Positions 1 to 32,000 of a DNA stretch of 32,000 nt are shown here, piece by piece. Under the pieces are notes generated by a model. It was not told the origin of the DNA and made no database searches. It worked only from the letters and a program-made list of their open reading frames with translations. The stretch comes from Candidatus Saccharimonadota bacterium (lineage in GTDB: Bacteria > Patescibacteriota > Gracilibacteria > Absconditabacterales > Absconditicoccaceae), in assembly GCA_030429145.1 (NCBI GenBank), contig JAUIDC010000001.1:780001-812000 (forward strand). Reading direction: 5' to 3'. Within the stretch, counting starts at the first letter, position 1; the number at the start of each line of letters is the position of its first letter. The position numbers and the translations under genes were made by a program.

Positions 1-149
1 TTGAATATAGTGAAACGAGCATATATTAACTCAGAAAGAGACTTAGAATGATTCTTAAAGGTAAAGGGTAAGTTTGTACAAGACTTGATATGACGATTAT
101 TCTTGGTTGTGTTATTCTTTATTATATCTTCGATAGTTAACAATAACCC

Positions 150-1075
150 ATATTAATCTTTCCCTATACCTTATTTAGTAATAGCCCAAATAAATTATCT
201 TCTTTTCTGTTATTATATCTCCAAACAAATTCATCTACATAAGCCTGCATCCATTGTTTGGAGACTCGATGATATATTCATCTAATACCTCTTTTGAGTA
301 AGCTCCAAAATCACTCAAGAGTATTTGTGTATACATCTCCTACAGCTCGCTCCCATCTGCTATGACAGACAGTATCATGCTGATAGCAAAGGGATAGATT
401 TCTATATCACCTTCGTTCATCTGAACATATCCTACTATGCTTTTCTACGTTTGCAAAAATAAAGGTTGTAAGGAACTCTTCTGTAGCGCTTTTCCCTATA
501 GTTGCCTTTATCTTTCCTGTATCGCGATTAAGAATTCAAACAACCATAGTTTTATTTCTTTGCCAACCATTATTCCATCATCATTTAACTCTTCCTCCCA
601 CATAAGTCTCATCGACTTCGCTAATTCATTTGAACATTGGGAGATCTTCCTTCATGAGTTTACGTATTTGTTGCATCATTCTCCAAGCCGTCTTATAGGT
701 GACTCTTATCTGTCTCGCTAGTTGATTTGAAGACAATCACTTCTTACTATTTGCTATGAAATACATAGCAAGAAACCATTTATGCAATGGTGTAGAAGAC
801 CTATAGAAGATGGTTCCACATTTCAATGTTTGCTGATGATTACAGCTGAATTTTCTACACTGATACTTTCTACTGTGAGATAATCTATACATAGTTGTTC
901 CACATTTTTGACATATTACTTTTGATTTTATTTTTGCAAGATGTTCATAACATTCTTCATCGGTTCTAAATTTCTCGATGAACTCTATTAAATTCATTCT
1001 GCAATTATTAAACAATAAAAGTCAATAATTGTAATGCAAAACAATGGCTATAGCAAGCCATTATCATACACGTGT
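150..1075 (-). mobile_element. IS1595-family insertion sequence (ends not resolved)
   Basis: Contains a complete IS1595/ISXO2-like transposase gene (164..1015). I could not identify convincing terminal inverted repeats or target-site duplications by eye, so the span is approximate. Hairpins at about 1041-1064 and 1098-1117 lie just upstream of the transposase start. Confidence 0.4.
164..1015 (-). CDS. IS1595-family (ISXO2-like) DDE transposase, intact only with 8 in-frame TGA read as Gly
   Basis: ORF 737..1015 encodes the N-terminal Zn-ribbon (CQKCG...CRKFSC...KCGTIF, then WFLAMYF). The same frame continues through TGA codons into LSSNQLARQI..KTAWRMMQQIR, SEVDETYVGG, SDERR-G-Y, VYTNTLE-G-FWSLLKR and YVDEFVWRYNNR, which are hallmark DDE_Tnp_IS1595 blocks. 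It ends at TAG 164-166. Length is 852 nt (283 aa). Confidence 0.85.
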
Positions 1076-1143
1076 ACGTGTATTTTTTAATTTTGTAAAG
1101 ATGCTTTTTTGCATCTATAAGAATAAAAATATATAATGTTAGT

Positions 1144-1488
1144 ATGAAAGAAGTTAGGATAAGAGACCCATTATATGGCATTTCTATTCAGGTATTCAGC
1201 GATATCTCTTTTGCAGATTGGAGAGAATCTTTTTGAATTTGAAAAGGGAAATCCGAAGTAAGTGTTGGGTGATTTACCTGGTATAATAATGAAACTTGAG
1301 GTGCACTCATATGGCTCAATAGAAAAGCATGACCAGAAATATTAATACACGAACTGTGGCATGCAATACATGGGGCATTAAAAGATAGATGATTCACTCC
1401 TAATAGCATTGCTGGGGAAGAGACGTATGCTTATCTTTTTCAATATTTTTATAGAAAGATGACTCAGAAAGGTTTATTTCCCAAATAA
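1144..1488 (+). CDS. small HExxH (zincin-like) protein, 114 aa, with 6 in-frame TGA; absent from the standard-code ORF track
   Basis: ATG 1144 to TAA 1486-1488 has no TAA/TAG for 115 codons in AT-rich DNA. In-frame TGA lie at 1234, 1240, 1270, 1297, 1330 and 1390. The table-25 translation MKEVRIRDPLYG...SVGGFTWYNNETGGALIWLNRKAGPEILIHELWHAIHGAL...FPK contains HELWH at nt 1348-1362. A TATAAT lies at 1132-1137 and a hairpin follows immediately downstream. Confidence 0.6.
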
Positions 1489-1512
1489 AAAAACACCGTT
1501 GTAGACGGTGTT
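1486..1512 (-). terminator. rho-independent terminator shared by convergent genes
   Basis: Stem acaccgt (1493-1499) pairs with acggtgt (1505-1511). The A-run 1487-1493 gives a U-tract on the minus strand after the 1542..1688 gene. The hairpin also sits 5 nt after the 1144..1488 stop. Confidence 0.7.
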
Positions 1513-1541
1513 CAAGATCAATATTAGCAAAAGAAAAGATA

Positions 1542-1688
1542 TTATTTTCTCTTGCGATTGGTGCCTGACTTTTTTTCTCCATCAGAGGTGTAAGGATTAC
1601 TTCTTGCGTGTCCTTTCACCTTGGTACCGTCAGCTTTAGTATAACCAGGTATTCTGTTATACTTTTGACCTTTGTCTGTTTTAGCCAT
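1542..1688 (-). CDS. small basic protein (48 aa), unknown function
   Basis: This is the internal ATG at 1688 of track ORF 1542..1877. The product is MAKTDKGQKYNRIPGYTKADGTKVKGHARSNPYTSDGEKKSGTNRKRK, followed by a terminator. The upstream part of the track ORF looks non-coding. Confidence 0.45.
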   Translation of the reverse strand: MAKTDKGQKYNRIPGYTKADGTKVKGHARSNPYTSDGEKKSGTNRKRK

Positions 1689-1829
1689 AAGGTATGTGGT
1701 TAAGAAATAAAAGAGTGTTTTTTTGTGGGTATGTTCTTTGCGAACATGTTGTGTAATCTGCATAATAAGCTTATTGCTGATTACACCCTGACTATATAGA
1801 ACGTACGTTTCTTTTTCAAGAGATTTTCT

Positions 1830-1867
1830 ATATATTGTGTTGCCGAACGTTTTTAGACACAATATAT
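1830..1867. promoter_or_regulatory. perfect 11-bp inverted repeat (candidate operator) in a divergent intergenic region
   Basis: atatattgtgt (1830-1840) and acacaatatat (1857-1867) are exact reverse complements with a 16-nt spacer. A TTGACA lies directly after, at 1871-1876. Confidence 0.35.
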
Positions 1868-2124
1868 GTGTTGACAAAAAACATATACTTATACCTTATA
1901 CTTCTTTTAAGGGAGATTTATCACTTGTTAAGTATCTCATATTCGTGGTTTTTGTTTATAAAAATATTATAGTTCTCTATGAGTGTAAGTCAACCCTTGT
2001 TTTCTCGCTCTTTTTCGGTAGAAAGAAGAAGATATTTAGTTTTTGAGTATGTATTTGTATGGCATCCTCTGCTCTCTCACAGATAGTATTGTTGCAGTGA
2101 TATTATAAGTTTTTATCGCTGTCG

Positions 2125-2835
2125 ATGTTTTTTGACCATTGCGTGAAGACAGATGATAGTATCACTGTCGGCGAACAAATTCGTATCCCCACGAGTGATA
2201 CGACTGCTATGATGCTCAATACCTCTATGGTAGAAAAGATACTGAAGGAGATTCGCCATCATCCGGACAAGAAAAATATCTTTGGTTATCTGGCGACTAT
2301 CAGTGCTTTGAGATGAGTTTTCTCATGTATGAAGGACTTTATGCAGAGTGATCGTCAGTTTGAGTACTTTCTCAAAGAGCTACTCAAGGACCAGTATTCT
2401 ACCTTTCAAAAGATCATCTACTTTTGCCGTAATGTGCTCTCTCATCATATCACTGCAGATATCGTGCTAACGAGAGAAGATTATGAAAAGCAAATGCTTA
2501 TGCTTCATCAGACGAAACGTCTGCATTTTGTGATGAACTATAAAAATGTCTTTGGAGCTGTCCGAAAAGGGAAAGAGACCTATGGGTTTACTATCGATAT
2601 CGATACTGCTCATATCAAGCAGGGGCAGAAATATACAAGTATCATCTCGTGGCATGAGCAATGGATGCTTGCAGAACTCTGCTACAATCTTAGCGAATAC
2701 TACAGAGCCAAGAAAATAGCAAAGAGTAAGGCCCCCACGATGACTAAGCAGGATGATACAAAGCCCGCAGCAGTGAAAAAAGCGCCACCAAAACGTAGAA
2801 GACGTAAAGTTGTAGCAAAGAAGAAAAGTTCATAA
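2125..2835 (+). CDS. hypothetical protein with an RNxxxH (HEPN-like) motif and a lysine/arginine-rich C-terminal tail
   Basis: Track ORFs 2125..2316 and 2329..2835 share a frame and are joined by TGA 2314-2316. The motif FCRNVLSHH fits Rx4H. The tail is KKIAKSKAPTMTKQDDTKPAAVKKAPPKRRRRKVVAKKKSS. Stop is TAA. Confidence 0.6.
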
Positions 2836-2997
2836 TATAATCCCTCATAGATCATGGCAGATTATTATAAAAGTTGAACATATATCACAGAAAATGTAGG
2901 AAATAATGCTATCTCATATGCTGAGAGAATGGCTTTGTGATCTCAGGGGAAACTCTATATTCCTCCTTTTGTGACATGAGGGATAGAAGATGTCGTT

Positions 2998-3576
2998 TTG
3001 GACGATAAAATCGTTTTTGAAGAGGTTGAGGATGGCCAACTCCTCTCTTGTTCAGGATTGAAGGAGCTTGTACAAGTATCACATCATGATAAACCTATCT
3101 ATATTACTGACAATCATCATCACGCATTATATTTCCGATACAAAGCGCTCAACGACGGCCTTATTTCTCCAGGAGCTACGCTCCTCCATATCGATCAGCA
3201 TGCTGATATGAACGAGCCTGTAGCTCGAATAGATCCTGATAAACAGTCCGACATGGACTATATAGCTACGTATGTGAATGAACAAACTCAAATCGCTTCA
3301 TTTATCCAACCAGCATTGAAGACGGGTCTTTTTGCAGAGTGCGTACAGATCAGAAGTGAGTTTGCACTACAGGAGGCTGTCAGCAAGATTAAATCATTTT
3401 GACCTTATGTCTTGGATATTGACCTCGATTTCTTTGTGTCTGAGTCTGATGTGTCAGAAAAAGTAGCTCTGATACAAAAGCTTATCTCAGGAGCGTCACT
3501 TGTAACGATAGCTACTTCCCCATCGTTTTTGGACCAGAAAAGGGCTTTGGAGCTACTACATACCCTATTACAATAA
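2998..3576 (+). CDS. UPF0489-family protein (arginase/deacetylase-like fold)
   Basis: TTG start at 2998. Motifs seen are ITDNHHHALYF, LLHIDQHADM and, after in-frame TGA 3400-3402, LDIDLDFF...IATSPSF. Ends at TAA 3574-3576. Confidence 0.6.
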
Positions 3577-4183: not shown

Positions 4184-5041
4184 ATGTCCGTAGGAACTGC
4201 TCTCAAATCGGCTCGATGAGCCATTGGAACGTTTGGAAAAGATGCTATCAATATCGCAAGCCGTACTTTGAAGAAACCGGTGCAGTTTTTGGCTGAAAAA
4301 AGCAATTTTTTTTCGTGAATTATGGAGTACTTGCCGACGGATAGCATTAGACAGCAGTGGGAAGGTATCCATTCGTCGTTCGCGGGAGTATTTGATAAGG
4401 TATTTGAAGAAGATGATTTGAATTTGGATATACAGGATGTGCCTTGTGCATATATTGCGGATAGGGTCTATTTAAATCCGTTTGAGCGTCCAAGACATGT
4501 GTTTGGTTTTGAGTTAGATGAAAAGTTTAATGAGTTTGAGTATGCGCTTTACGTCAATCATAAGAAAAAGAAGTGGATCATTGGCTATAGAGGGACAGAA
4601 GTGACTGCCGTAAAGGACTATATTAGTGACTTGCATATTGTACTTGGGACGCAATCATGGAATCAGAGATTTAGTGCGTCTGAGCATGTCTATAAGCAGG
4701 CAAAAAAGCTTTTTCCCGACTACCATAGTATCGTGACAGGCCACTCATTGGGTGGAACGATAGCATATTTTATTGCAAAGAAGTTTCTTCCAGACCGTTG
4801 TGTCGCTTTCAATCCTGGATCAAGTGCTAACCCGACCTTTGCGCAGCTTATCGCTGATACGCAGGTGCAAGCTGACTGGACGAGGCGTGTGTTTACCTAT
4901 CGTATTGCTGGGGATCCTATTTCGACGTTGAGTGTTATTGGGTATACGAGAACTTTCCGCAAGCGTCACCTCAATCCCCTTGCATTGCATGCTATTGGTA
5001 ATTTCTGCTCACTTCCTGATGTTTCTAAGGATGTTTACTAG
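4184..5041 (+). CDS. class-3 lipase-like alpha/beta hydrolase (GHSLGG nucleophile elbow)
   Basis: Track ORF 4322..5041 carries GYRGTE...VTGHSLGGTIAYF. The same frame is open upstream to ATG 4184 through TGA 4217-4219 and 4316-4318 (MSVGTALKSAR-G-AIGTFGKD...NFFS-G-IMEYL). This places the start right after the promoter. The start is less certain than the gene itself. Confidence 0.7.
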
Positions 5042-5470: not shown

Positions 5471-6505
5471 ATGATTATGTGACTTGCCCCTATGGATGGT
5501 ATAACCAATGCTGCTTATCGTATCGTCGTGAAGCAGATTTTTGAGAAATATAACAAAGAACATGAACTTTGGATGTGGACGGAGTTTATGAATGCAGAGG
5601 GCTATGTTCGCGAGCCACAGCGTCTGGTCCATCATATCATTAAGACCGACTATGAGGACAATACGATCGCTCAGATCTATGGTGGAGATCATGAGGATTT
5701 GGTGAAAACTGCAAAGGATATCGCTGAGAAGTATCCATCTTTTTCTGGTATAGAACTCAATATCGGTTGTCCTTCTCCAAAAGTGATGGCTTGTGGCGGT
5801 GGTGCCGGTATGATGAGAGAAAAAGAAAAAACTCTTGAATTGATGAAGCGTCTACGTGATGTGTGCGGTCTACTCCCCTTTAGCATGAAGACTCGTGCTG
5901 GACTGACAGAAGATGATAAGCAGGCACAAAAAGAGTTTATCATAGCCTCTGCAGAGTTTTGTCAGACGCTTTCTATACATGGAAGAACCTATAAGCAGTG
6001 ACACTCGGGTGATGTAGATTGGCAGATGATTTATGATATTAAAGAGGCCGTTGGTGACAAGGCGCTCGTTATCGGAAATGGTGGAGTAAAATCATATGAG
6101 CATGCCTTAGAACTGAAGCATAATCTCGATGGTATCATGATAGCTCAGGCCGCGATCGCAGATCCGTGGATCTTCGTGCCACATGAGCCTACGCCTGCAG
6201 AGCGTCGTGAGACCATTCTTTTCCACTTGAAGCTGATGATTATTGCTTTTGACTATTATCATAAGAACTTACATTTCACAGAGAAATTCACTCAACCGTC
6301 GTATGAACAGTGGATGAATGAGGTAGAAAACTTCGATATCAGTCGTTATGATGTAGGAAAATCAGTTATCGAATATAGAAAATATTTGTTCAATTATGTG
6401 GGTGGGCTGACTGGTAGCAAAGAGTTTAAGAGAATAGCTGCGACCATTAGAGACTATCAGCCGTTAGTCGATGCAGTCAATGAGTTTTTCGCGACACTTT
6501 CGTAA
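5471..6505 (+). CDS. dus: tRNA-dihydrouridine synthase
   Basis: MIM-G-LAPMDGITNAAYR restores the conserved LAPM(x)G(x)T N-terminus only by reading TGA 5480-5482. Other motifs are ELNIGCPSPKV and SIHGRTYKQ-G-HSGDVDW, which crosses TGA 5999-6001. Track ORFs 5492..6001 and 6026..6505 are in the same frame. Confidence 0.85.
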
Positions 6506-6952: not shown

Positions 6953-7852
6953 TTACCTTACTCTTTCGATGACACGCAACTTTGCGCTACGTGCTGCCCT
7001 GTTGTGCTGTACTTCCAGGTAGTGTGGTTTGATGACTTTCTTATTGTACAGCTCATACCCTGCCTCATCAGCAAGCTGCTTAAATGCAATTTTCACCAAG
7101 CGATCCTCTATACTATGATAGGTCATAATTGCACACCTTCCTCCCTTACTCAACAATGGTGGAAACTTCTCCAAAAAAATAATTAACTCATCCAATTCAT
7201 GATTGGTTTCTATTCTCAAGCACTGAAAGATAATCGGCATCTGGTTTTTTCTTATTCCTTTCTTTTTGAGTGTGTCGTGGAGTTCCGTGGTTGTCAATAT
7301 GTGTCCATTTGTCCTTTCTGCAATAAGCGCATCAGCAATATATAAGCCACTCTTTTCTGGGAAGTCGCCATATTTCACAAACACCTCAGCGAGTCTTTCA
7401 CGTGGGTAGGTGTTGACGATCCTTGCAGCAGTCTGGCCGTTCGTCTGGTCGAAGCGCATATCCAATGGAGCATCGTAGAGAAATGAAAATCCACGCTCGG
7501 GGTCTTTAAAGTGCTCCATGTTTACTCCAAGATCTAAGAGTATGTAGTCTATTTGTGGTAGTAACTCACTCTGTAGTATCTCTTCTATGTGGCTGTAACT
7601 GTTGTGTACAAAGTCGATATGTGCATGATACTTGTGCACAAGTTCCCTTCCCTTTTCAAGCATCTTGAGATCACGATCAACAGCGACAATTCTTTTGTTT
7701 TTTACTGCATCCTCTCCTTCGTGAGCCTGGAGTTGTTGCATAATGTATTCGACGTGGCCACCATGCCCAAAAGTACCGTCCATATAGGTTTTCCAACCCG
7801 ACGGCAGCGACTCAAATACCTCCTTCGCCATAACTGGCTGGTGACGTAACAT
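6953..7852 (-). CDS. rsmH: 16S rRNA (cytosine1402-N4)-methyltransferase RsmH/MraW
   Basis: Motifs seen are HQPVMAKEV, DGTFGHGGH, LLDLGVN, SFLYDAPLDMRFD, TYHSIEDRLVK and NRAARSAKLRV. No in-frame TGA. Confidence 0.9.
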   Translation of the reverse strand: MLRHQPVMAKEVFESLPSGWKTYMDGTFGHGGHVEYIMQQLQAHEGEDAVKNKRIVAVDRDLKMLEKGRELVHKYHAHIDFVHNSYSHIEEILQSELLPQIDYILLDLGVNMEHFKDPERGFSFLYDAPLDMRFDQTNGQTAARIVNTYPRERLAEVFVKYGDFPEKSGLYIADALIAERTNGHILTTTELHDTLKKKGIRKNQMPIIFQCLRIETNHELDELIIFLEKFPPLLSKGGRCAIMTYHSIEDRLVKIAFKQLADEAGYELYNKKVIKPHYLEVQHNRAARSAKLRVIERVR

Positions 7853-8991: not shown

Positions 8992-9609
8992 ATGTCCCAG
9001 ATTTTTCAAAAGGTACAAGGTCCTCATTTGCATAGTGAAGATCATAGTTGGTATTCCTTTTATCAAACAGTGCAATCGGTATCAGAAGGTGTGTATTATT
9101 GTCTCCATGAGCACTACTCTCAAGATAATATTCTTACCATCAAGGTTCTTTCCTGTGCTGGAGATAAATGTTCGGCTATGGATATGCCCCTATTTATGCT
9201 TCACATTACTAATAACCTGGACTTCCTCTATCTCCAACATATTGGTATAAAGGACTACAGGAAGTATAAAGAGTATTGTGAATTGAGGGGGTTACCACTT
9301 GTTTTAGAGTCTCAGCTAGATCTGCTCCTTAAAGAAAGTGGTGCTACGTTGTCTGATTGGATCAAATTGATGACAGACCTTTCAGAGCGCCATGGTGGAA
9401 CAATGTCTGACCAGGATAGTTATCAAAATTCTTTCCTTTCTAGGCTCCCTCAGGTTCCATTGAGCGATGAAGAAGGAAAATACGTTCAGCATTTGATAGA
9501 TCGCTTGGTAAAAGCGGAAGGAAGCGGTGAAATAGCAGATGCCAAAATGTTCCTTGGTAATAAACTTAAAGAGCATATAGTTGGTTTTGTAGAGGGACAG
9601 ATGGCATAG
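8992..9609 (+). CDS. hypothetical protein (205 aa), paralog of 8007..8828
   Basis: Uninterrupted ORF with its own terminator and a shared KDYxxYxxYC block. Confidence 0.6.
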   Translation: MSQIFQKVQGPHLHSEDHSWYSFYQTVQSVSEGVYYCLHEHYSQDNILTIKVLSCAGDKCSAMDMPLFMLHITNNLDFLYLQHIGIKDYRKYKEYCELRGLPLVLESQLDLLLKESGATLSDWIKLMTDLSERHGGTMSDQDSYQNSFLSRLPQVPLSDEEGKYVQHLIDRLVKAEGSGEIADAKMFLGNKLKEHIVGFVEGQMA

Positions 9610-9718: not shown

Positions 9719-10759
9719 ATGAACTATGAGCGCTTTGATAGAGAAGATAAGAAAATATTTTTAGTAGATATGAGGCAGGATAAGAGTGCGTCAGGTTTTT
9801 CATCGTTGGCTGATGCGGGGATACGTAAGATGCTGAACGAAAAGAAAAAAGTACTTATTATTGCGTCGAAAAAGGGCTTCGCATCGTGAATGCTTTGCGA
9901 TGATTGCGGATTTATCCCGAAATGCGACCATTGTGACATCCCTATTGCTTTTCATAACGATCCACAAAAACAGCTTTATGGGATCTGCCATATCTGCAAG
10001 AAGCACTATCAGCCTTTTCCTACTTGTCCGAAATGCTCAGGATTTAACATTAAACTCTATGGGACTGGTGCTCAAAAGGTCGAGACGTTGCTAGAAAAAG
10101 AATTTGGTGCGAAGAATATCGTTACGGTTGATTCGGAGAGTGCAAATAGTCAGGCAAAGGTGAAAAAATTACAACTTGCTTTACCAGATGCGGATATTGT
10201 TGTAGGAACTTCCCTGTTAGCCACTCCTCCTGCAGATTGGAAGCCAGATATGGTGGTGGTGATGAATGCAGATGCAGGACTTCACATTCCTGATTATAAG
10301 TCGCACGAAAAGGTGTTCACAGGATTATCGACTATCGTGAATAATTACTCGAATAATATCATAGTCCAATCATATAAGAGTGATCATCCATCGATACGTT
10401 GTGCGTGTAGTGGCAATATGGATGAGTTTACTAAAACTGAAAAGGCATTTCGCAAAGATCATGGCTACCCGCCCTATGCACAGCTGGCAGTTATCCTCTA
10501 TAAAAATGAGATAGAACAAAAGATGTTTACCACGGTCAATAAACTCTATCAGGAACTCCTCTTTCTCAATGAAAAAAATGGTAGCAGTATCGAAATGTAT
10601 GCTACTCCTCCACTTGTTTACAAGATGTATGATAAATATAGATACAATATTGTCTTAAAGTGAGAAAATATTCGTCCATTTCTTGACGATGCGTTTGAAA
10701 AACTTAATATGTTTGGCCGCTGATTTAAAATAGATCGGATGCCTGAAAGTTTGGTATAA
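9719..10759 (+). CDS. priA: PriA-like primosomal protein N', C-terminal half only (Cys-rich region, degenerate helicase lobe 2, C-terminal domain)
   Basis: ATG 9719 has TAA 9698-9700 upstream in frame. The product starts MNYERFDREDKKIFLVDMRQ...KKVLIIASKKGFAS-G-MLCDDCGFIPKCDHCD...CHICK...CPKCSG...LYGTGAQKVE and ends ...YNIVLK-G-ENIRPF...FGR-G-FKIDRMPESLV. In-frame TGA lie at 9887, 10661 and 10721. The alignment by eye begins at about residue 400 of E. coli PriA. Confidence 0.75.
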
Positions 10760-16758: not shown

Positions 16759-17229
16759 TTATCATAAACGTAAATGTTTCATCTCTTTTTCAGCAAGTCT
16801 TGCAGTGTCTTTCTCTTTGATAATCTGTCTTTTCTCGACTTTACGTCTGAGTTTTCCTACTCCTATTTTTACTTTAATCAATCTTCTACTATTTTCATAT
16901 ACCACTAAAGGCACTATCGTTAAACCTGTTTTCGTCGTTGCGGCTACTATCTTTGCGAGTTCTTTCTTTTTAACTAGTAGGGTCCTTCTTCCTTTCGGTT
17001 CGTAGTCACCCACTCTGTCCGGATCGGCCTTTGAGTAGAGCGGAATGTCCATGTTTGTTATATAGATAGTTTTGCTGTCACGATCTACCTTGACGATGGC
17101 ATCTTTGATGTTTACATGCCCCGTTTTGATAGATTTTACTTCGTGTCACGCTAAAATAATCCCTACATCGTACTCTTGCTGGATATCGTAGTCGTTATAT
17201 ACGTGCTTGTTCTTCGTGATCGTACGCAT
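16759..17229 (-). CDS. smpB: SsrA-binding protein SmpB
   Basis: MRTITKNKHVYNDYDIQQEYDVGIILA-G-HEVKSIKTG, with TGA 17146-17148 at the conserved Gly of L-x-G-x-EVKS. Other motifs are PKGRRTLLVKKKE, GLTIVPL and GKLRRKVEKRQ. The gene ends TGA-TAA. Confidence 0.9.
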
Positions 17230-18776: not shown

Positions 18777-19205
18777 CTACCAGGTGAAATTTATTTCTTC
18801 ACAGCCACAACTTCTCCACAGTGCAAATTTATTTCCCGCCGGGTATTGATACAGTTTGCTATCAGAATTGTTTATCACAAACTCTGCTTTTATAGAATGT
18901 GTTGAGTCTTTTGCCTTTAACATTTTCCTGAAGATAACAGCTTCTGTCTCATAGAAACCATTTTGACCTAGGATAACAGTGTCATTGGTAGAGCCTCCTC
19001 TAATGTCGCTGGTTATGAGAACCAGTGTGCTGCCGTCCTTCTTTTCATTGATGGTTCCGCTTACAATAGTCCCATGGATAGTACGTGGGGAATCTACAGA
19101 ATATAATTGTAGTTCAGTCCCATTATCTATGACCTGAGTATTGCTTGAACCACAAGATGAGAATAAACAAATAGCAACTCCGATTGTAATGAGTAGTTGT
19201 TTCAT
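18777..19205 (-). CDS. putative lipoprotein (142 aa)
   Basis: Signal peptide with lipobox MKQLLITIGVAICLFSS-C-GSS. No family recognised. Confidence 0.55.
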   Translation of the reverse strand: MKQLLITIGVAICLFSSCGSSNTQVIDNGTELQLYSVDSPRTIHGTIVSGTINEKKDGSTLVLITSDIRGGSTNDTVILGQNGFYETEAVIFRKMLKAKDSTHSIKAEFVINNSDSKLYQYPAGNKFALWRSCGCEEINFTW

Positions 19206-21027: not shown

Positions 21028-22038
21028 CTACTTTTTGATAATAAGTATCTGTCTACCGACTTTTTGCTTTGGTCTTTTATAGACTTCTTCGACGAACTCG
21101 TAGTTCACCTTATTGTCATTGAGCCATTCTTCAAGAGATTCTTTCACATAACTGGCTGTTCATTGATGAATAGGTATCGTGCAGACTACTGTTATATACT
21201 CATAGAATGAGTTGATATTCTCGAAAAACGCTTTGTAGAGCTTCACAATGTCATCTTGAGCTTGATAGATCTCTTTGTCTCCTGTTTTCTCTGTAATGAT
21301 GGGTCATAGCCACCCTTCCGTCACGATCAGATTAACGTGCTGTAAAAATGGTTTCTTGAGGGGCTCAAAGATATCATGTTTGAACACAGTTATCCTCTTC
21401 TCTTTTTGCGCAAGGTCCTGCTCTTGCCATCGCTGAGTATTCTGTTTCATGGCTGTCACATCTATATCCGATGCGATACAGTCGTATCCAAGGTAATTGA
21501 CGAGAAAGGCAGTAGTTCCAAGTCCTACAAAAGGATCATATACAGTGATATCATCATCATCATGGCACTGGCTCATACCCATATTTATCATCATATGAGT
21601 GAGTTTCGCTGGCATCATACCTATTTTCATACTATTTACTGGTTTTTCAAAATCTATCGCTTCATAAAGCGAAATATCCTGATATCCTTCGATAGCGATA
21701 ATATTCTCTTCTATAACGAGATATTCTTTCCCTTTTTCTTTTACTTCAAGGTCTGTCTTCGTAGGATCTACTTCTTTAAACCTCCTTGTGAGTCCCTCTT
21801 TTTTCACCTCTTTTCCAAAATCTCTCTCATTGGTTCCTATGATATCGACAGGAGTAATGTCCTTCTTTGTAATACACTTTCCCCATTTTATGATACCAGC
21901 AAGTTTTGATAATAACTCTGGTTTTTTTGTGTCAAAAAGGACGATATTTTGAGATATCGTGATGTTTGTTGGCTGTACCAGCTCAAGCTCTTTGAGAGAA
22001 ATGTGTTTGTGTTTACCGAGCACTGCGCCGTACATCAA
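21028..22038 (-). CDS. class I SAM-dependent methyltransferase-like protein (UPF0020/Trm11-like) with a non-canonical motif IV
   Basis: SAM motif I is VYDPFVGLGTTAF. At the position of (D/N)PPY the sequence reads LIVTEGWL-G-PII, with TGA at 21304-21306. A second TGA lies at 21160-21162. Stop is TAG 21028-21030. Confidence 0.55.
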
Positions 22039-23938: not shown

Positions 23939-25135
23939 TTAGAAGACATTTTTTATCCACTCTCGTACTTTATTGAGCCGATTTGAGTTGATACCGATAT
24001 TGAAGTTAATGTTTTTGAAGAGACCTCTTCTTCCTTCGTAGTATTTCTCTGATCGAGTGTACACTCCGATAAGATTGATAAACTGTGGATTGAGAGATAG
24101 CTCTCCGAGGTTCATTACTCTGTCTTTTCCATTGTGAGCGACAAGTTTGAAGACAGATTTAGCAAATATATCAAGGTTTTTCATCTTAGCTCCTCCTCCT
24201 ACAAGGATGATGCCTCATGGCAATCTTCCGTCTCTTTCTATCTCAGCGAACTCTTCATTGATGAGTTCGAAGATTTGTTCGTATCTTGCTCCGATGATCT
24301 CCGAGAGGAATCCTACGTCTATCTGTGTATCTTCTACGGGATCCTTTTCATTGATCATGAGTATTCCGTTTGCTTTTTTCATCTCCTCTGCTTCTTTGAT
24401 GTCGACTTGCATACCGAGTGAGATATCTCTTGTGACATCTTCACCACCTACAGGAAGTGTACCATATGCAAGTGGATTGCCCTCTTCATAGACCACATAG
24501 GTCGTATGATTTGCTCCGATATCTACGAGCGCTACCCCAAGGTCTTTCATGTCAAAGTCGAGAGCAACTTCGCTAGCACCAAGGATATTTGGTACGATAT
24601 CAACAACGTTGAGATTGAGTTTGTCGAAGATATCTACGAGATTGTTATAGAAGTTCTTCGGGATCATAAACACATCTGCAACGAGCTCGAGCTTCTTCGC
24701 TTGAAGACCAAGCGGATCCTTTTCTCTCTTCGTATCATCAATAAGCCGGTATACAGGCATGATTTTCAATGTTTCGTAGTTAGCGTGACCGCTTATTTCA
24801 CTCACGATTCTTGAAAGATGCTGAATATCATCATTGGTGATTTTTTCACTCATAATTCTCTTTTGCTCTTGGATTCTTGTTACCATCATCTCAGGATGAG
24901 AGATGCCGATGAAGACCTGTTCAAGAAAATCTCCTCCTAGCTTCTTATGAAATCCGTCAATAATGTTGCTCATAGAGAGCGTAAGGTCGTCCATATCGAG
25001 TACTTTCCCCTTGCGGAGACCTTTTGTCTTGACGATTTCCTTCGCCAAAATCAGCTGTTTTCCGTCGTCTTTTCCAAAGAGAGCCGCTTTGATGTATCCG
25101 TTCCCTATGTCAAATATTGCTTTGAGTTCCTGCAT
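23939..25135 (-). CDS. ftsA: cell division protein FtsA
   Basis: Motifs seen are AIFDIGNGYIKAAL, LVDIGANHTTYVVY and DGRLP-G-GIILVGGGAK, with TGA at 24215-24217. Track ORFs 24215..25135 and 23939..24184 are in the same frame. Confidence 0.9.
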
Positions 25136-25295: not shown

Positions 25296-26150
25296 CTAGT
25301 TTATATCTCCTCCTTGTCGGCTTGAACAAAGTCAATTTGCACCATAGGTTTTACACTTCTGTTGATAGACACTATTAACTCTGGTATCAAAGAACATCCT
25401 ATATATCTGTCTACACTGTATGCTTCTGTTGCAGATATTAAAGTTGATGGCACCAGTGTATGCATTTCTGTAGAGTGAGGTGTTATTGATGTCGTGAGTA
25501 TAGCGTAATTTCATTTTTTGAGATACATTTATATCTGTTGTTTCATTTTGAAAGGTAAGAAGGATGGCGGTTGCATCAAAATCGTTATCCAAGGAGATGA
25601 AGTAGTTATTGTTGATACAGCTCACGTGGATATTGTTGTATCCGCTTATGATATTGTGAAATACAGGTAGCTGCGTTGCCATGTACTGATAGGTCGATGA
25701 GGTAAGCACGAGTGGGGCCTCTCCTGTTCCTCTGTAGAAGTTTTGTAGAGATGCTACATTATCAACGTCGACGGTTACTCCTGTTCGACTAGTAGACCAG
25801 CTACTTTGATCAGACCAAATAGAGCCAAGGTTCGGCACTCCTCTTATATCGATACCAGTACCAAAACTTCCTCCACCTGGGTACACAGCAGGAAATCTGA
25901 AAAAGAGAGCTATCCAGTCGGGGCTCGTTGCATTCAATCCTGTCATATTTCCGCCTGAGAGGGATCTGTTTCTACTGAGCAGTGATGCGAGGTGTAGTTC
26001 GTTTACTATACTGTGGACATTGTTAGCGCAGACCTCTCCTTCAAAGTATATTTGATTTTCGCTTGTGAAGAGATTTCTGGACATTAAAAGCATCAACCCC
26101 AAAATAATCATCACTACGATAAGCTCGATAATAGTGAAGGCTTTTTTCAT
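25296..26150 (-). CDS. type IV pilin-like / pseudopilin protein with a prepilin N-terminal motif
   Basis: MKKA-FTIIELIVVMIILGLMLLM has the FT(L/I)IE class III signal with Glu+5. The track ORF ends at TGA 25332-25334. Table 25 extends it by 12 codons (the TGA codon plus 11 more) to TAG 25296-25298. Confidence 0.7.
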
Positions 26151-26175: not shown

Positions 26176-27321
26176 TTATTTTACTAGTGGTCTGATGACA
26201 TATCTATAGTTTGCATCATCTTTATCCATGAAAATAACTGGTTTTTCTCCGTTAACGATATTAACAGAAATATCACTTCCTTCTATGGCTTTTACAAAGT
26301 CTGTGACATACTTTCCGTTGAGACCCATGGTTGCGTCAGGTCATTCTACGACAGCAGAGAGCGTACTATTTGCCTCACCTCTATCTGTTTCTCCTGAATT
26401 GATGAAAAGTGTGTCTGGTGAGACTTCGAGTGAGATATAATTGTTAATATCTCTTGTAATGATAGAGATCTTTCTAATAGCCTTTTCAATCTGGTTTTTA
26501 TCAATCACTACCTTTGTCTGGAAGTCAGTAGGCATGATATTCTCATTTTCATACTCTGGGAAAGAACCCTGGATAAGCAGAGATGTCATGACAATTTGCA
26601 TATCATCAAGATTTGCACTACATGAGAGAAGATTGTCAGAAAACTTCATAGCTATCTGCTCTCCTCCTTTTGAGATGAAATAGTCTACCACTTTTTTTAC
26701 ATCACCGATGTTGGTCTTTGGTATGATTACGTCCATGTTGCCACCTGCATCTCCGTGGAAATCTATCTTGTATTCGGCAAGTCTGAAAGAGTCTGTACCG
26801 ACGAAAACAAGTTTATGTGCTTTTTCTGTCGCTTTGAGTCTCATAAGGATACCTGTTAAGACAGGAGAGAAATTCTTTTCAGTCACAGCATATTCGACCT
26901 TACCAACACCTTTTGAGAAAGCAGCTGCATCAAATGTGATGCTCTTATCACTCTGTACCTCTGGCACAGCAACGTACTCACTTGCAGAAATTCCTTTAAT
27001 CTTGAAATCATCAGATGATGTTTTGATAGTCATAAGGTCTTTTACGCTATCCACATGTATCTGTACCTGTTCATCATCTATAGTCTTCATGATATCACCA
27101 AATGTTCTTGCATTTACAGTGATAGCACCTTCTGTATCTATACTAGCAGGCATTTGTACTTCAATATACTTTTCCATATCTGTTGCTCTGAGCAAGATAG
27201 TATCTATATTTCCTTTAATATAGATGTTTTCAAGAATAGGTAATGTCGAGTGCTTCGAAACAAATCTTCCTACGATATCGATAACTTCCTGCAGCTGTGC
27301 TGTCTTCAATGTAACTTTCAT
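26176..27321 (-). CDS. dnaN: DNA polymerase III beta sliding clamp
   Basis: The N-terminus MKVTLKTAQLQEVIDIVGRFVSKHSTLPILENIYI is typical. After TGA 26341-26343 the frame continues PDATMGLNGKYVTDFVKAI...YRYVIRPLVK, the canonical DnaN C-terminus. 381 aa. Confidence 0.9.
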
Positions 27322-27358: not shown

Positions 27359-28063
27359 TTATTGTCAGTAGTTTCTTTTATTTGCTATGCTGTCAAATCG
27401 CTTCAGTGATTCGTCGAGATCCGTACTCGTAAAGTCAGGATAGGTTTTTGGACTAAAGTAGAGTTCGGCATATCCTATCCATCGAGACATAAAGCCTGAT
27501 GTTCTTTGTGCTTCGTCTCCTTTGGTTCTGATGACCATCTCTACAGGAGGTAGTGTACCGAGGTCCATGTGTTTACTCAACTCCTCTTCCGAGATAGTAG
27601 TGATTTGTTTCTTTTCTTCAAGTATCCTATTGATACCTCTTACAATCTCGTCTCTTCCTCCATAATTGAGCGCAAATACTGCATATTTTTCCGAATCAGG
27701 GAATGAGAAGTTCTTTTGTTTATTATCAAGAAACGCTTTAAAGTCATCTGGTATCCCTATGGGATTTCCAATTCGCTTAAAGTTAATATGATGTTCTGCT
27801 AAAAATTCATCTAGATCATTTCCTATCGTTTTGTAGATGCTGAAGATGAAATCTAGCTCTGCTTCTGATCTTTTCTGTAGATTCTCTGTGCTGAGAAATC
27901 GTCCAGTAACCACCTTCGTCTCAGTTGTGGTAAACACATGTTTAAAGAGGTCTATTGTGTTCTTTGCTCAAGCAAAATGACCGTCCATAGGTGCAAGTCA
28001 CTGCTCTTTTGCCCAAGTTCTGTTTCCATCTGCAATGATGGCAATATGCTGTGGATATATCAT
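27359..28063 (-). CDS. uppS: undecaprenyl (isoprenyl) diphosphate synthase
   Basis: MIYPQHIAIIADGNRTWAKEQ-G-LAPMDGHFA-G-AKNTIDL, with TGA at 27998-28000 and 27968-27970. Both align by eye with Gly in E. coli UppS (KKQG, KAGAK). Other motifs are ALNYGGRDEI and RTSGFMSRWIGYAELYF. A third TGA lies two codons before the TAA stop. Confidence 0.88.
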
Positions 28064-28088
28064 GAGTTACAAAATGCTTATATAATGA

Positions 28089-28874
28089 TTAGTCATCAGA
28101 TTTTTTATAGTGCTGTTCATAATAGCTGATACATCTCTGGAGTATGAGTTCGAGCTTTTCCATATGTGCGAGATCTTTTTTATCAATATGTAGTTTCAAG
28201 CTGAAATAGCCCTTGTAGTCGGCCGCATGAAGCTTGTTCATGAGAGAAGGGATATTGAGTATACCATCTCCAGGAATTACATGCGACTGATCGTATTGTG
28301 TTTTATCTGAAAGATAAATGGTCGAGATATACGGCACAAAGTTCTTGAGATTTCTGAGGAGTGTGCTATCAAACTCCTCTTCTTCCAGATTTGCGATATC
28401 GAGACCAAGATTCGCGTGATATGTTTTGATGATTTTAATCACGCTATTGAAACGATATTTGGGAAGTGCAAGGAGGATAGTTCCCTTTTCTGGATTGATA
28501 ATAGAAAATTTGATGTTTGGATTTGATTTCTTGTATGAGTTGAGGTTGTCTACCACGAACTTGTATGATTTGATATTGAAAAACCCTGGAGGGTTGATAG
28601 TTATCGTGTCGACGCCTAGCTCCCCTGCAAGGTCCAATGCCTGATTCATCTCTTTGATATTAATATCCTTCGACGTTTGGATCACTTTCACTGGGAGATC
28701 GTACTTTTCTACAAGTCTTTTGACGTATGCGATATTTCGACTGTCGAAATTCTTCCATATAGCAAGGTCGATACCGTCAAATCCGTTTTTCTTTGCAACC
28801 TCAAAAATAAGGTCTAGTCAATATCCTGTCAGCGTATCGGTACTGAGCAGAAGTGGTGGTCTAGTCTCTGCCAT
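28089..28874 (-). CDS. xylose isomerase-like TIM-barrel (sugar phosphate isomerase/epimerase family) protein
   Basis: MAETRPPLLLSTDTLTGY-G-LDLIFEVAKKNGFDGIDLAIW, with TGA at 28818-28820, is joined in frame to track ORF 28089..28691. The layout is typical of the AP_endonuc_2 family. Weak by-eye call. Confidence 0.5.
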
Positions 28875-29060: not shown

Positions 29061-29091
29061 GTTACTTTTTAGCATTGCCCTAAAAAGTAAC
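29061..29091. repeat. perfect 12-bp stem hairpin
   Basis: gttactttttag (29061-29072) and ctaaaaagtaac (29080-29091) are exact reverse complements with a 7-nt loop (cattgcc). No adjacent U-tract on either strand. Confidence 0.6.
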
Positions 29092-29103
29092 CAAAAAGCT
29101 CTA

Positions 29104-29231: not shown

Positions 29232-29242
29232 GATTATATTGT

Positions 29243-29929
29243 TTAATCAAGTATCTGGATGCCGGTAGTGTTGAGGGTTGCTTTGTGGATTTCGGCGAGT
29301 TTTTTACAGATTTCTCTAGTGTCGTAGCGGGGGTCTTGTTGGCTTTTATAATATCGTTGGTGAGTATCGATAAGTGATATTTCAGTGAGATTTTTTCGAT
29401 CTTGAAAAAGTTGAGAAGGGGTGCAAAAAAGAGTTTGGATTTGGCCTGTTTTGATACCTCGTCGAGCTTTGTCTTTTTGCACCTGCGTAGATGTCCCATT
29501 GAGTATAACGTACTCTTTGAGGGAGTTGTACGCTGGATTTGTTTTAATGTGATTGTCCATCGTTCGGACATCGGGAAAAACGACAAGTTTCTGTTCAGCC
29601 TTCTTCTTAGTTTTGATTTCTTTGTTGAAGAGGTCTGCTACCTCTCCTGTGACAAAGAGTTTAACGACGTTTTTATATGATGTATAGTATTCGTGTACGA
29701 GTCGGTGAATGAGTGTGAGTGTCTTTTTTGAGAAAAAGTTTGGATAGTACTCATCTACCCTGTCAGATAGAAGAAATTTGTCTTTGTCGACTTTTCGAGT
29801 AGTTTCATCTCCAAGTGCGACGTACATGTCATTTCCACCGACATACAAATCTCCCTCCTTCAAGCCCTCCTGCTTGGTTCGGCAGATCTTATCATGGCCA
29901 TATCGTCACTGGAAGCTGTAGAGGTACAT
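29243..29929 (-). CDS. priA: PriA-like primosomal protein N', N-terminal half only (3' DNA-binding region and degenerate helicase lobe 1; Walker A absent, DEEH replaced by DTHQ)
   Basis: ATG 29929 with TGA at 29906-29908. The product is MYLYSFQ-G-RYGH...LIHRLVHEYYTSYKNVVKLF...QKLVVFPDV...ILNGTSTQVQKDKARRGIKTGQIQTLFCTPSQLFQDRKNLTEISLIDTHQRYYKSQQDPRYDTREICKKLA...TLNTTGIQILD. By eye it aligns with E. coli PriA LVMVPEI...LHSGL..ER..W...G...IVIGTRSALF...LGVIVIDEEHDSSYKQ...RYHARD...ILGSATPALE. Stop is TAA 29243-29245. Confidence 0.7.
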
Positions 29930-29947
29930 GTATGATGAAATGAGTAA

Positions 29948-30175
29948 TTACTGACTGTCTGTTTCGCTTTCTGCTGCTTCTGGGTCGTAGATAAGGTCGT
30001 CCATAGGCTCTTTTTTTGCCTCTTCGACGATGTTTTTTAACTCATCTGGAGCATCAGCAAACATCTCATGGAGCTTGACCTCCCTTGCATATTTTTCTTT
30101 TTCCTCTTTGAGTGTTTTCTCATCGACTACCTGAAAGTCGAACTCTTTATTTTGATCGTCTTCTTGTTGAGTCAT
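29948..30175 (-). CDS. small acidic protein (75 aa), unknown function
   Basis: Uninterrupted ORF between lysS and the priA N-half, with tight spacing. The product is Glu/Asp rich. Confidence 0.45.
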   Translation of the reverse strand: MTQQEDDQNKEFDFQVVDEKTLKEEKEKYAREVKLHEMFADAPDELKNIVEEAKKEPMDDLIYDPEAAESETDSQ

Positions 30176-30197
30176 TATAGTATAGTAGATTGGTAAA

Positions 30198-31793
30198 TTA
30201 TTCTTCTTCTGTATTTTCTGTCTTTTCCTTTAGCATGTGTGCCGGTTTCATCATGGGGAACAATATCACATCGCGGATATTTGGTTGTTCTGTGAGGAGT
30301 GCAAAAATTCTATCGATACCCATTCCTCGACCAGACTGAGGTGGCATACCGTATTCCATAGCTTGGACAAATTCTGGGTCTCCTGCAGTCGCTTCTTCGT
30401 CGCCTGCTTCTAGGGCTGCAGCTTGGGCATCAAAATTTTTCTGCTGCTCCACTGGGTCAACGAGCTCTGAGTAGGCTTTGATAACCTCTCGACCATTGAT
30501 AAGAAGCTGCCACTGCTCTACGATATTTTTATCATAATCATTGGTACGCGCCAAAGGTTGCATGAGCTGTGGATAGTTGACGATAAATGCAGGACCAACT
30601 ATCTTCGGTCTGGTTACTTTCTTGTAGAGGTAGTCAATCATCGTAACAAGGCCTTGTTTATCGATGCCTTCCCATGTATATCCTGCTTTTTTGACGTCTG
30701 CTCTGAGCTTTTCGTCGTCTCCTTCCTGATAAGATCCAACATCAATGCCTGAATCTTTTTTGATTTGATCGACATAATTGATACGCTGTCGTGGGGTTTT
30801 AAATGAAACCTCTTTTGTGACTCCTTGTTTGTCAGTAACATTGATCGTTTGTTGTAGTTCAGGGATCTTTTTGAAAATATAGTCAAACATCTCCTCGGTA
30901 AATTTCATGTTATCCTCATGATTTCGATATGCTGCATAGTGCTCGATCATCGTAAATTCTTGGTGATGACTTGGGTCTGAGCCTTCATTGCGAAAGTCTT
31001 TTGCTACCTCAAAAACCTTTTCAAGCATACCAACGGTAGCTTTCTTAAGATTTGTCTCGGGTGAGATTCTCAGATACATGTCCATATCAAAGTCGTTGTG
31101 GTGTGTCACAAATGGACGCGCTGCCGCACCAGATGCTGCATTGCCAAGTACTGGCGTCTCTATTTCGGTGAAACCTCTCTCTCGGTAAAACTCTCTGATC
31201 ACCTTGAGAAACTTTGAGCGGAGCTTCATCCTCTCGAGGCTCTCTTTATTGAATATCATATCGAGATATCTGTGTCTGTATGCTCTCTCTTGGTCTTCTC
31301 CGATGCCGTGAAATTTGTCTCCAAGTGGTTGGATCGCTTTCGCCAAGAATGTATAGTTAGTTACGAACAGGGTTAATTCCCCTTTATGCGTCAAAAATAA
31401 CTCTCCTTCTACACCGATAAAATCACCAACATCGACCAACTTATCAATTAACTTATAGGCTGTCATATCTTCTATTTCACTTACGGCTTCGCCGTCCTTC
31501 ACAATATGTGTCGCTTCCCTGTGGAACATAAGCTGAATTTCTCCACTTTCGTCAAGGAGTCTTCCGAATGACAATTTTCCATGAGAACGGAAAAGCGTTA
31601 GTCTTCCAGCCGTTTTATACTCATTTTTGGGTGAAGGGATAATCTCTTCTACATCACGAAATTCCTCTTCTTTTTTTGTCAGAAGATCTTGTATCATAGA
31701 GGTCTTATCGTACTTTGGTGCGTAGGGATTGATTCCCATCTCACGTAGTTTCTCTGCTTTCTGTTTTCTTACCTCGTACTCTGAAAGTGTCAT
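30198..31793 (-). CDS. lysS: lysine--tRNA ligase, class II
   Basis: The N-terminal OB-fold region is GRLTLFRSHGKLSFGRLLDESGEIQL. Class II motifs are FTEIETPVL, ARPFVTHHN, YLRISPE, RNEG and MGIDRIFALLT...IRDVILFP. No in-frame TGA. Confidence 0.95.
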   Translation of the reverse strand: MTLSEYEVRKQKAEKLREMGINPYAPKYDKTSMIQDLLTKKEEEFRDVEEIIPSPKNEYKTAGRLTLFRSHGKLSFGRLLDESGEIQLMFHREATHIVKDGEAVSEIEDMTAYKLIDKLVDVGDFIGVEGELFLTHKGELTLFVTNYTFLAKAIQPLGDKFHGIGEDQERAYRHRYLDMIFNKESLERMKLRSKFLKVIREFYRERGFTEIETPVLGNAASGAAARPFVTHHNDFDMDMYLRISPETNLKKATVGMLEKVFEVAKDFRNEGSDPSHHQEFTMIEHYAAYRNHEDNMKFTEEMFDYIFKKIPELQQTINVTDKQGVTKEVSFKTPRQRINYVDQIKKDSGIDVGSYQEGDDEKLRADVKKAGYTWEGIDKQGLVTMIDYLYKKVTRPKIVGPAFIVNYPQLMQPLARTNDYDKNIVEQWQLLINGREVIKAYSELVDPVEQQKNFDAQAAALEAGDEEATAGDPEFVQAMEYGMPPQSGRGMGIDRIFALLTEQPNIRDVILFPMMKPAHMLKEKTENTEEE

Positions 31794-31857
31794 TCCTATA
31801 GTGAAATAATGTCAATAAATCTTTCTACATATATAGAAATTCCGCGTTTTTGCAATG

Positions 31858-31884
31858 AAAAAAGGCTGCATGATTATGCAACCT
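31858..31884 (-). terminator. rho-independent terminator of the upstream minus-strand gene
   Basis: On the minus strand, ggttgcat-aatc-atgcagcc is followed by T6. Confidence 0.65.
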
Positions 31885-32000
31885 TAACTCTCTTGAGAGA
31901 TTTCTTTTTCCTTTTGGGTAATAATGAATTTTGGATACCAATGATCTCATCTGTTTTGGGGAGTATTTTACATGGATATGAGCTTATGGATGAGCTAACA
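31874..32000 (-). CDS. 3' end of an unidentified gene running off the window (last 41 codons)
   Basis: An open frame runs from the window edge to TAA 31874-31876, which lies inside the terminator hairpin. The product ends ...GIQNSLLPKRKKKSLKRVKVA. Support comes only from openness and the terminator. Confidence 0.3.
   Translation of the reverse strand, partial: VSSSISSYPCKILPKTDEIIGIQNSLLPKRKKKSLKRVKVA

Follow-up and report, generated by a model that had tools for sequence, protein, structure and literature searches.

The question raised by this locus is which genetic code its genes use. The window, i.e., the whole stretch of 32,000 nucleotides analysed here (positions 780,001 to 812,000 of contig JAUIDC010000001.1, assembly GCA_030429145.1), had been described from its letters alone, and this preliminary description had concluded that translation table 25 is needed. 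We compared the codons of the window with those of related genomes and with residues of homologous proteins. Judged from these comparisons, UGA very probably specifies glycine and CGA and CGG tryptophan, arginine keeps AGA, AGG, CGU, and CGC, and the other 61 codons retain their standard meaning.

Coding sequences and in-frame TGA codons

Coding sequences (CDS) were taken as open reading frames (ORFs) with TAA and TAG as the sole stops, after which starts were chosen. Once TGA was treated as a sense codon, long non-overlapping ORFs tiled the window (GC content 0.396), yielding 27 CDS with 8,954 codons and a coding density of 84% in 32 kb. Twenty CDS end with TAA and seven with TAG, in agreement with the earlier claim that genes terminate only at these triplets. 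In the coding frame TGA occurs 48 times and TAA and TAG never, the absence of the latter two being partly a consequence of the ORF definition, while the two non-coding frames contain 217 and 395 TGA, 116 and 222 TAA, and 189 and 100 TAG. The in-frame TGA triplets are spread over 19 of the 27 CDS and, read as glycine, make up 48 of 560 glycine codons. The preliminary description had estimated about 20 split genes and about 50 TGA, close to this recount. The TGA positions that it cited in PcrA, UppS, SmpB, FtsA, UvrB, and Dus are in-frame TGA in every case, as is the codon at x of the TNTLE-x-FW motif in the IS1595 transposase (311-313). Its statement that genes are split at TGA and continue colinearly in the next piece also held, with single alignments to relatives crossing every TGA. 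PcrA residues 41-793, for example, aligned through the TGAs in one piece with a related 1.1-Mb chromosome (locus L008, 79% identity), and PepF residues 5-571 gave one unbroken match to relatives.

The consequences of reading the same DNA with code 11 can be seen in public gene calls for Logan contig ERR3428547_4705 (94,580 bp), to which FtsZ, LysRS, and an ORF from the left end of the window all map and where the window occupies approximately positions 5,461-37,460 in reverse orientation. In these calls, FtsA has 306 aa (398 in our CDS set), SmpB has 96 aa (156), UppS has 190 aa, PepF is broken into 162 and 257 aa, Dus into 169 and 159 aa, and PcrA into a 331-aa product plus more pieces.

The CDS that the codon comparisons below draw on are the following (positions are those of the first letter of a codon unless a range is given).

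164-997, minus strand: IS1595-family transposase, 277 aa (Pfam DDE_Tnp_IS1595, E 3.6e-33); 8 TGA, 3 CGA
5471-6505, plus strand: tRNA-dihydrouridine synthase (Dus), 344 aa; TGA 5480 and 5999, with PDB alignments
9719-10759, plus strand: C-terminal part of PriA, a separate gene, 346 aa; TGA 9887, 10661, and 10721; CGG 10736
10854-13115, plus strand: PcrA/UvrD helicase, 753 aa; TGA 10950, 11304, 11418, 12468, and 12936; CGG 11733; CGA 13032
13900-15426, minus strand: DUF4012 protein, 508 aa; 2 TGA, 2 CGA
15560-16747, minus strand: hypothetical CDS, 395 aa; 2 TGA, 1 CGA, 2 CGG
16759-17229, minus strand: SmpB, 156 aa; TGA 17146 and 16762
17230-18687, minus strand: N-terminal half only of UvrB, 485 aa (Pfam ResIII and UvrB_inter); TGA 18616 and 18604
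19300-21003, minus strand: oligoendopeptidase F (PepF, M3B), 567 aa; 4 TGA, 4 CGA
21028-22035, minus strand: methyltransferase-like CDS, 335 aa (weak N6_N4_Mtase match); 2 TGA, 1 CGA
23939-25135, minus strand: FtsA, 398 aa; TGA 24215; CGG 24746 and 23978; CGA 24053 and 23963
26176-27321, minus strand: DnaN, 381 aa; TGA 26341
27359-28063, minus strand: UppS, 234 aa; TGA 27998, 27968, and 27365; CGA 27899, 27773, 27482, and 27398
29243-29929, minus strand: N-terminal part of PriA, a separate gene, 228 aa; 1 TGA, 9 CGA, no TGG
30198-31793, minus strand: class II lysyl-tRNA synthetase (LysRS), 531 aa; CGA 31182, 30924, 30789, 30489, and 30327; no internal TGA

TGA sites align with glycine

Relatives were collected by scanning species-representative genomes with the UvrB protein, which yielded 52 loci from metagenome-assembled genomes (MAGs) of Absconditabacterales/SR1 and 28 standard-code loci (Armatimonadota, Paenibacillus, and others) that served as an outgroup. 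From tblastn alignments, window codons were matched to their counterparts in relatives, and the pairs were counted per site. At 23 of 30 aligned TGA sites at least one relative had GGN, and at none of the 30 did a relative have TGG. The window's TGG sites, used as a contrast, showed the opposite pattern (GGN at 1/47, TGG at 35/47), and the two classes of sites differed with Fisher p values of 2e-12 for GGN and 8e-12 for TGG. Several genes show the exchange individually. Relatives had GGN at all three TGA sites of the C-terminal PriA gene, and all six relatives had it at TGA 21304 of the methyltransferase-like CDS. At TGA 14017 of the DUF4012 gene two relatives had GGN and three TGA; at TGA 26341 of dnaN three had GGN and two TGA.

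Proteins translated with the standard code gave the same answer. Among the UvrB outgroup loci, glycine occupied 50 of 57 aligned cells at TGA sites overall (25/27 at 18616 and 24/27 at 18604). In PDB homologues, the residue aligned with TGA was glycine in 4/4 chains for PcrA 10950 (Walker A, AGA-x-SGKT), in 3/3 chains for SmpB 17146, where TGA itself is kept in 6/6 relatives, and in 3/3 homologues for PepF 20125. UppS TGA 27968 (GH-x-x-G) corresponded to G, G, G, I, and G; Dus TGA 5480 to G in the single aligned structure and Dus TGA 5999 to S, G, G, and G; and FtsA TGA 24215 to G, A, A, and A. Tryptophan was found at none of the TGA sites among the aligned PDB and UvrB outgroup homologues.

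The IS1595 transposase gene carries 8 TGA in its 277 codons (positions 737, 626, 581, 578, 536, 407, 311, and 278), roughly fivefold the average of the window, and would be broken by stops under the standard code. Its columns were evaluated in 120 homologues (36-52% identity) found in Chloroflexota, Verrucomicrobiota, and other groups, most of them probably using the standard code. Six of the eight TGA columns had a glycine majority (115, 113, 89, 117, 72, and 117 of 120).

Two TGA codons lie next to gene ends. SmpB TGA 16762-16764 is the final sense codon, directly before TAA, and UppS TGA 27365-27367 is the second-to-last sense codon, near TAA, with GGN or TGA in relatives. The latter matches the glycine of the conserved C-terminal RRFG motif.

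Taken as a comparison of sequences, these results strongly support UGA being a glycine sense codon, with only UAA and UAG terminating translation. The assignment of glycine to UGA in the preliminary description is thus upheld by codon exchange, outgroup, structural, and IS1595 evidence alike, and the check it had proposed against table 4 came out clearly, TGA columns never being tryptophan columns.

CGA and CGG sites align with tryptophan

The claim that the window needs table 25 was correct for UGA and for the UAA and UAG stops. It failed for CGA and CGG, which did not behave as arginine codons: relatives had an AGR or CGY codon at none of 33 aligned CGA sites, and TGG at 16 of them. At true arginine sites (AGR and CGY codons of the window), the corresponding counts were 190/237 for AGR or CGY and 2/237 for TGG, and the difference between CGA and true arginine sites was significant in both respects (Fisher p 6e-15 for TGG and 1e-20 for arginine codons). 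CGG sites were paired with TGG at 5/6 and with AGR or CGY at 1/6. Conversely, relatives had CGA or CGG at 35 of the window's 47 TGG sites. A scan of the 64 codons by site majority gave the standard meaning throughout, apart from TGA (G), CGA (W at 16 of 26 sites), CGG (W at 4 of 6), and TCC, and we take the departure at TCC (10 sites) as noise. On this reading the window has 120 tryptophan codons, namely 73 TGG, 40 CGA, and 7 CGG, so that CGA and CGG together supply 47/120 (39%); the usage per 10,000 codons is 82 for TGG, 45 for CGA, and 8 for CGG. The earlier remark that tryptophan is still encoded by TGG therefore stands as far as the 73 TGG codons go and is incomplete, CGA and CGG also behaving as tryptophan codons.

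Standard-code references had tryptophan or other aromatic residues at many individual positions. UppS CGA 27482, in the SNFLL-W-Q motif, corresponded to tryptophan in 5/5 PDB homologues, CGA 27899 to Y, Y, Y, F, and W, and CGA 27398 to TGG in three relatives. PcrA CGG 11733, in motif III (IY-x-W-RGA), was aligned with W, F, W, and W in the PDB and with TGG and two CGA in relatives. In FtsA, the residues aligned with CGG 24746 were Y, Y, F, and Y, and relatives had TGG four times at each of CGA 24053 and CGA 23963. PepF CGA 20455 was matched by F, F, Y, and C, and CGA 19600 by Y, Y, and Y. When the N-terminal PriA gene was compared with E. coli PriA, CGA 29462 fell on W and CGA 29396 on F; in relatives, the latter was TGG twice, and CGA 29564 was matched by one TGG and one CGA. 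The single CGG of the C-terminal PriA gene (10736) was paired with two TGG and one CGG. CGA 14338 of the DUF4012 gene was TGG in 5/5 relatives, CGG 16367 of the hypothetical CDS 15560-16747 was TGG in four, and CGA 21430 of the methyltransferase-like CDS was matched by two TGG, two CGA, and one CGG. Of the three CGA positions of the IS1595 transposase (413, 347, and 266), column 347 had 57 Y and 56 W, and column 413 had 39 W, 23 L, and 18 Y, among the same 120 homologues.

LysRS offers a further view, because public pipelines write CGR as R, and a tryptophan position should then appear as a mixture of W and R. The top 120 homologues, all from the recoded clade, were used. The five CGA columns contained W43/R76, W86/R34, W75/R45, F53/R39/W28, and R55/H16/W15. 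Four of the five consist only of W, R, and F (plus one T), and the fifth is variable, with 2 K; true arginine columns of the same alignment show the usual R/K exchange. PDB homologues have variable residues at the CGA sites (A, F/W, R, and L), those at CGA 30789 being F, W, W, F, and F. One LysRS CGA lies at the position of the tryptophan in AG-W-GMGIDR of eukaryotic LysRS.

The choice among tryptophan codons is uneven. The N-terminal PriA gene uses CGA nine times and TGG never, and LysRS uses CGA five times and TGG twice; Dus has 5 TGG and neither CGA nor CGG, and PcrA has 7 TGG, one CGA, and one CGG.

Alternative readings

Several observations weigh against the proposed code. The CGG assignment rests on 6 aligned sites only (7 codons in the window). 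Both codons also have uninformative sites, some CGA being aligned with A, L, T, or I and some TGA falling in variable columns (S, N, D, K, or E). LysRS CGA 30489-30491 falls on an arginine (G-G-R-E) in 4/5 PDB LysRS structures, and the corresponding clade column is W75/R45, TGG being found there in relatives of the clade. PcrA CGA 13032 corresponds to arginine in the sole PDB chain that reaches this position, with two TGG and one CGA in relatives. No tRNA genes were found by ARAGORN and Rfam in the window, about 45 kb of the source contig (extensions 1-17,263 and 24,626-45,132), and the 52 related loci. The same DNA contained no release factor gene, the motif GGQ(H/N)VN being absent from 868 kb of clade DNA. 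Finally, the GC content of 0.396 and the CGA usage of 45 per 10,000 codons are slightly above the ranges published for Absconditabacteria (GC 0.26-0.38 and fewer than 37 CGA per 10,000 codons in all species; PMC8629427), the window being a 32-kb sample and not a genome.

Four other readings have to be set against this evidence. Under the standard code, the interruptions would be due to pseudogenes, assembly errors, selenocysteine, or programmed read-through, and callers using code 11 do produce plausible-looking fragments. This explanation is refuted, in our view beyond serious doubt: all 48 interruptions are TGA and none is TAA or TAG, the interrupted genes include the essential DnaN, FtsA, SmpB, UppS, and PcrA, and in many genomes the same positions hold either TGA or GGN, in alignments that run through them. 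Table 4, in which UGA is tryptophan, would also leave the genes open across TGA, as would any sense reading; it is refuted as well, with practically no likelihood left to it, by the exchange of TGA with GGN at 23/30 sites and with TGG at 0/30, and by outgroup and PDB residues that are never tryptophan.

The remaining two readings agree with ours on UGA and differ on CGR. In plain NCBI table 25, CGA and CGG would still be arginine. It is correct about UGA, the mostly arginine position of LysRS CGA 30489 in PDB homologues speaks for it, and so does a metagenome contig of a probable UGA-glycine organism (L119, described below) that has CGR at a conserved arginine. Against it stand the exchange of CGA with AGR or CGY at 0/33 sites, compared with 190/237 for true arginine codons, its exchange with TGG at 16/33, the presence of CGA and CGG where UppS and PcrA motif III have invariant tryptophans, and the W/R mixtures of the LysRS clade columns, in which there is almost no lysine; we consider this reading highly improbable. 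Alternatively, UGA could be glycine with CGA and CGG being ambiguous (both arginine and tryptophan), or their reassignment could be incomplete. The tRNA machinery was not seen in the DNA examined, two CGA sites are arginine in standard-code homologues, and CGG has a complicated history in the sister clade (Shulgina & Eddy 2021, PMC8629427), all of which would fit. However, the exchange pattern is no less clean than the one shown by TGG, and all nine tryptophan-like positions of the N-terminal PriA gene are CGA, in addition to the invariant tryptophans in essential enzymes, which makes ambiguous or incomplete decoding highly improbable. The W75/R45 composition of the clade column at LysRS 30489 implies that the clade truly has tryptophan there. 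The site could be a relic of a CGA codon that meant arginine in an ancestor, was re-read as tryptophan, and then became fixed.

Within the code with UGA as glycine and CGA and CGG as tryptophan, the lineage might have advanced further in the capture of CGA and CGG than the genomes described in 2021. The share of 39% of tryptophan codons that are CGR, the all-CGA N-terminal PriA gene, the GC and CGA values above the published ranges, and the clade-wide tryptophan (CGA or TGG) at LysRS 30489, where other bacteria have arginine, point in this direction, and we regard the idea as tentative and rather unlikely. If it were true, sites like LysRS 30489 would allow the events of a sense-to-sense reassignment to be ordered.

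Decoding machinery

By analogy with published work (Shulgina & Eddy 2021; Campbell et al. 2013), UGA would be read by a tRNA-Gly whose anticodon is UCA, and release factor 2 (RF2) would have been lost. CGA and CGG would be read by tRNA(UCG) and tRNA(CCG) with tryptophan identity (G73, no A20), and CGU and CGC by tRNA-Arg(GCG), again as the literature suggests. Bacteria of the candidate phyla radiation (CPR) lack tRNA(ACG), use tRNA-Arg(GCG) for CGU and CGC, and have tRNA(UCG) and tRNA(CCG) as readers of CGA and CGG (Shulgina & Eddy 2021, PMC8629427). Reading of CGA and CGG by these two tRNAs would explain why both codons changed together. The route was likely codon capture, whereby UGA, CGA, and CGG would have become rare at low GC content and new tRNA meanings would have taken them over.

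Near UvrB in the 52 loci of relatives, ARAGORN and Rfam searches found no tRNA(UCA), tRNA(UCG), or tRNA(CCG). When metagenomes were scanned for tRNA(UCA) genes whose acceptor end is of the Gly type, six candidates emerged, none assignable to the genome of the window. Those on low-GC contigs have G1-C72, C2-G71, G3-C70, and U73. Many other matches in the scan belonged to phage tRNA arrays or to tRNA-Glu genes that are unrelated. On one contig (L099, GC 0.34), the ORF beside the Gly-type tRNA(UCA) contains both TGA and CGA in frame.

One of the six lies on L119 (GC 0.32), a metagenome contig whose tRNA(UCA) has the identity elements of glycine. At 3-509 on the minus strand of this contig, CGA or CGG occupies the conserved arginine of the ABC-transporter signature LSGGxRQ-R-IA. 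In this organism UGA is probably glycine with CGR still arginine, which would agree with reports of a mixed situation in Gracilibacteria.

Lineage of the window

The closest UvrB loci came from Absconditabacterales/SR1 MAGs and had 55-88% amino-acid identity to the UvrB of the window, the best matches being L008 (88%) and L001 (86%). LysRS matches likewise came from Absconditabacterales/SR1 MAGs, and the gene order around UvrB is common to the window and several Absconditabacterales loci. By these sequence affinities, the DNA of the window comes from the chromosome of an uncultured member of Absconditabacterales (candidate division SR1, Patescibacteria).

Many of the close relatives (L004, L006-L008, L011-L017, and many others) carry the NCBI label "uncultured Candidatus Peribacteria bacterium". 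Their UvrB proteins have 55-88% identity to those of loci deposited as Absconditabacterales or SR1, and the closer of them have the gene order and the TGA and CGA usage of the window. The name "Candidatus Peribacteria" on these MAGs looks wrong.

Other genes and gene-level observations

The remaining CDS of the window are as follows.

2059-2835, plus strand: hypothetical CDS with uncertain start, open only if TGA is sense; 2 TGA, 1 CGA (the code-11 call spans only 2329-2835)
2854-3576, plus strand: CDS of 240 aa, a fragment of which matches FlmR_OhkR_N; 4 TGA, 2 CGA, no TGG
4184-5041, plus strand: Lipase_3/phospholipase-like CDS, 285 aa; 2 TGA, 1 CGA
6953-7852, minus strand: RsmH (Methyltransf_5), 299 aa; no recoded codons
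8007-8828, plus strand: hypothetical CDS, 273 aa; 1 CGA
8992-9609, plus strand: hypothetical CDS, 205 aa; no recoded codons
13167-13814, minus strand: hypothetical CDS, 215 aa; CGG 13260, no aligned relative
18777-19205, minus strand: lipoprotein-like CDS, 142 aa; no recoded codons
22062-22517, minus strand: ATP synthase epsilon subunit, 151 aa; no recoded codons
22660-23871, minus strand: FtsZ, 403 aa; no recoded codons
25296-26150, minus strand: pilin-like CDS, 284 aa, N-terminus KKAFTIIELIVV; 1 TGA, 2 CGA
28089-28874, minus strand: AP_endonuc_2/xylose-isomerase-like CDS, 261 aa; 1 TGA, 1 CGA

PriA is encoded by two separate genes on opposite strands, about 18.5 kb apart (29243-29929 on the minus strand and 9719-10759 on the plus strand). 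When joined, the two pieces matched residues 244-693 of E. coli PriA in a single colinear alignment whose break falls just past motif III, the C-terminal gene being colinear with residues ~400 to 693. The ATPase motifs of the N-terminal piece are degenerate: VTGEVAD stands where GVTGSGKT would be expected, and IDTH where DEEH would be. We considered whether the split was due to misassembly or to an inversion of recent date and rejected both, since the same arrangement occurs in L003, L008, and L049; for the same reason the split is old.

UvrB, at 485 aa, contains the ResIII and UvrB_inter domains, and its helicase C-terminal and UVR domains are absent according to Pfam. The match in clade UvrB loci generally ends at query residue ~460-485. 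The smpB gene directly follows the short UvrB gene, an arrangement also present in L001-L004, L008, and L049. When the C-terminal half of a standard UvrB was searched for, nothing matched within 10 kb of the uvrB gene, either in the clade loci or in the source-contig DNA examined.

The IS1595 transposase gene is located in the low-GC left end of the window (1-2000, GC 0.33), and a search for terminal inverted repeats flanking it gave nothing convincing. The pilin-like CDS (25296-26150, minus strand) lies between dnaN and ftsA and has a type IV pilin-like N-terminus, MKKAFTIIELIVVMIILG; it is poorly conserved, with 34-36% identity to its counterparts in L001 and L008. Past the right end of the window, the end of the source contig (L082, 129-1782) contains an HMUDK_hel gene (5-hydroxymethyl-dUMP kinase type) beside a dUTPase fragment, a pairing more usual in modified-base phages.

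Practical implications

The importance of the code is practical rather than conceptual, as all protein predictions in the window hinge on it. Code 11 fragments 19 of the 27 genes, as is visible in the public calls. Code 25 mends the fragments yet puts arginine at the 47 positions that are most likely tryptophan (39% of the tryptophan codons), and the errors include catalytic or invariant tryptophans in UppS and PcrA. Public protein databases carry the CGR error, as seen from R mixed with W in the LysRS clade columns of the 120 sequences retrieved. For annotation, modelling, and phylogenetic trees of Absconditabacterales, we advise using UGA as glycine together with CGA and CGG as tryptophan.

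Comparison with known genetic codes

The code of Mycoplasmatales and insect endosymbionts (table 4) resembles that of the window in that UGA is a sense codon, and differs in inserting tryptophan where the window has glycine; according to the literature, RF2 has been lost in table 4 lineages, whose genomes are reduced and low in GC. NCBI table 25 (Campbell et al. 2013; Rinke et al. 2013) is alike in UGA being glycine, in UAA and UAG being the sole stops, and in lineage. It keeps CGA and CGG as arginine codons, which the window does not. That UGA is glycine in SR1 and Gracilibacteria, as the preliminary description stated, is borne out by this literature. Capture of an arginine CGN codon by tryptophan in a low-GC lineage is also known from Anaerococcus and Onthovivens (order RFN20; PMC8629427; PMC13092985). 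In contrast to the window, these Bacillota have reassigned CGG alone, CGA remaining arginine through tRNA(ICG) and UGA remaining a stop.

The closest system is the code of Absconditabacteria, in which CGA and CGG have become tryptophan codons on top of the change of UGA to glycine (Shulgina & Eddy 2021, eLife 10:e71402, PMC8629427); the same three-codon code was repeated in a 2026 Nucleic Acids Research paper (PMC13092985). The code proposed here is thus already published, and its scientific novelty is low. The window and Absconditabacteria are alike in all three reassignments, in clade, in AGA being the main arginine codon, in CGG being rarer than CGA, and in the retention of TGG.

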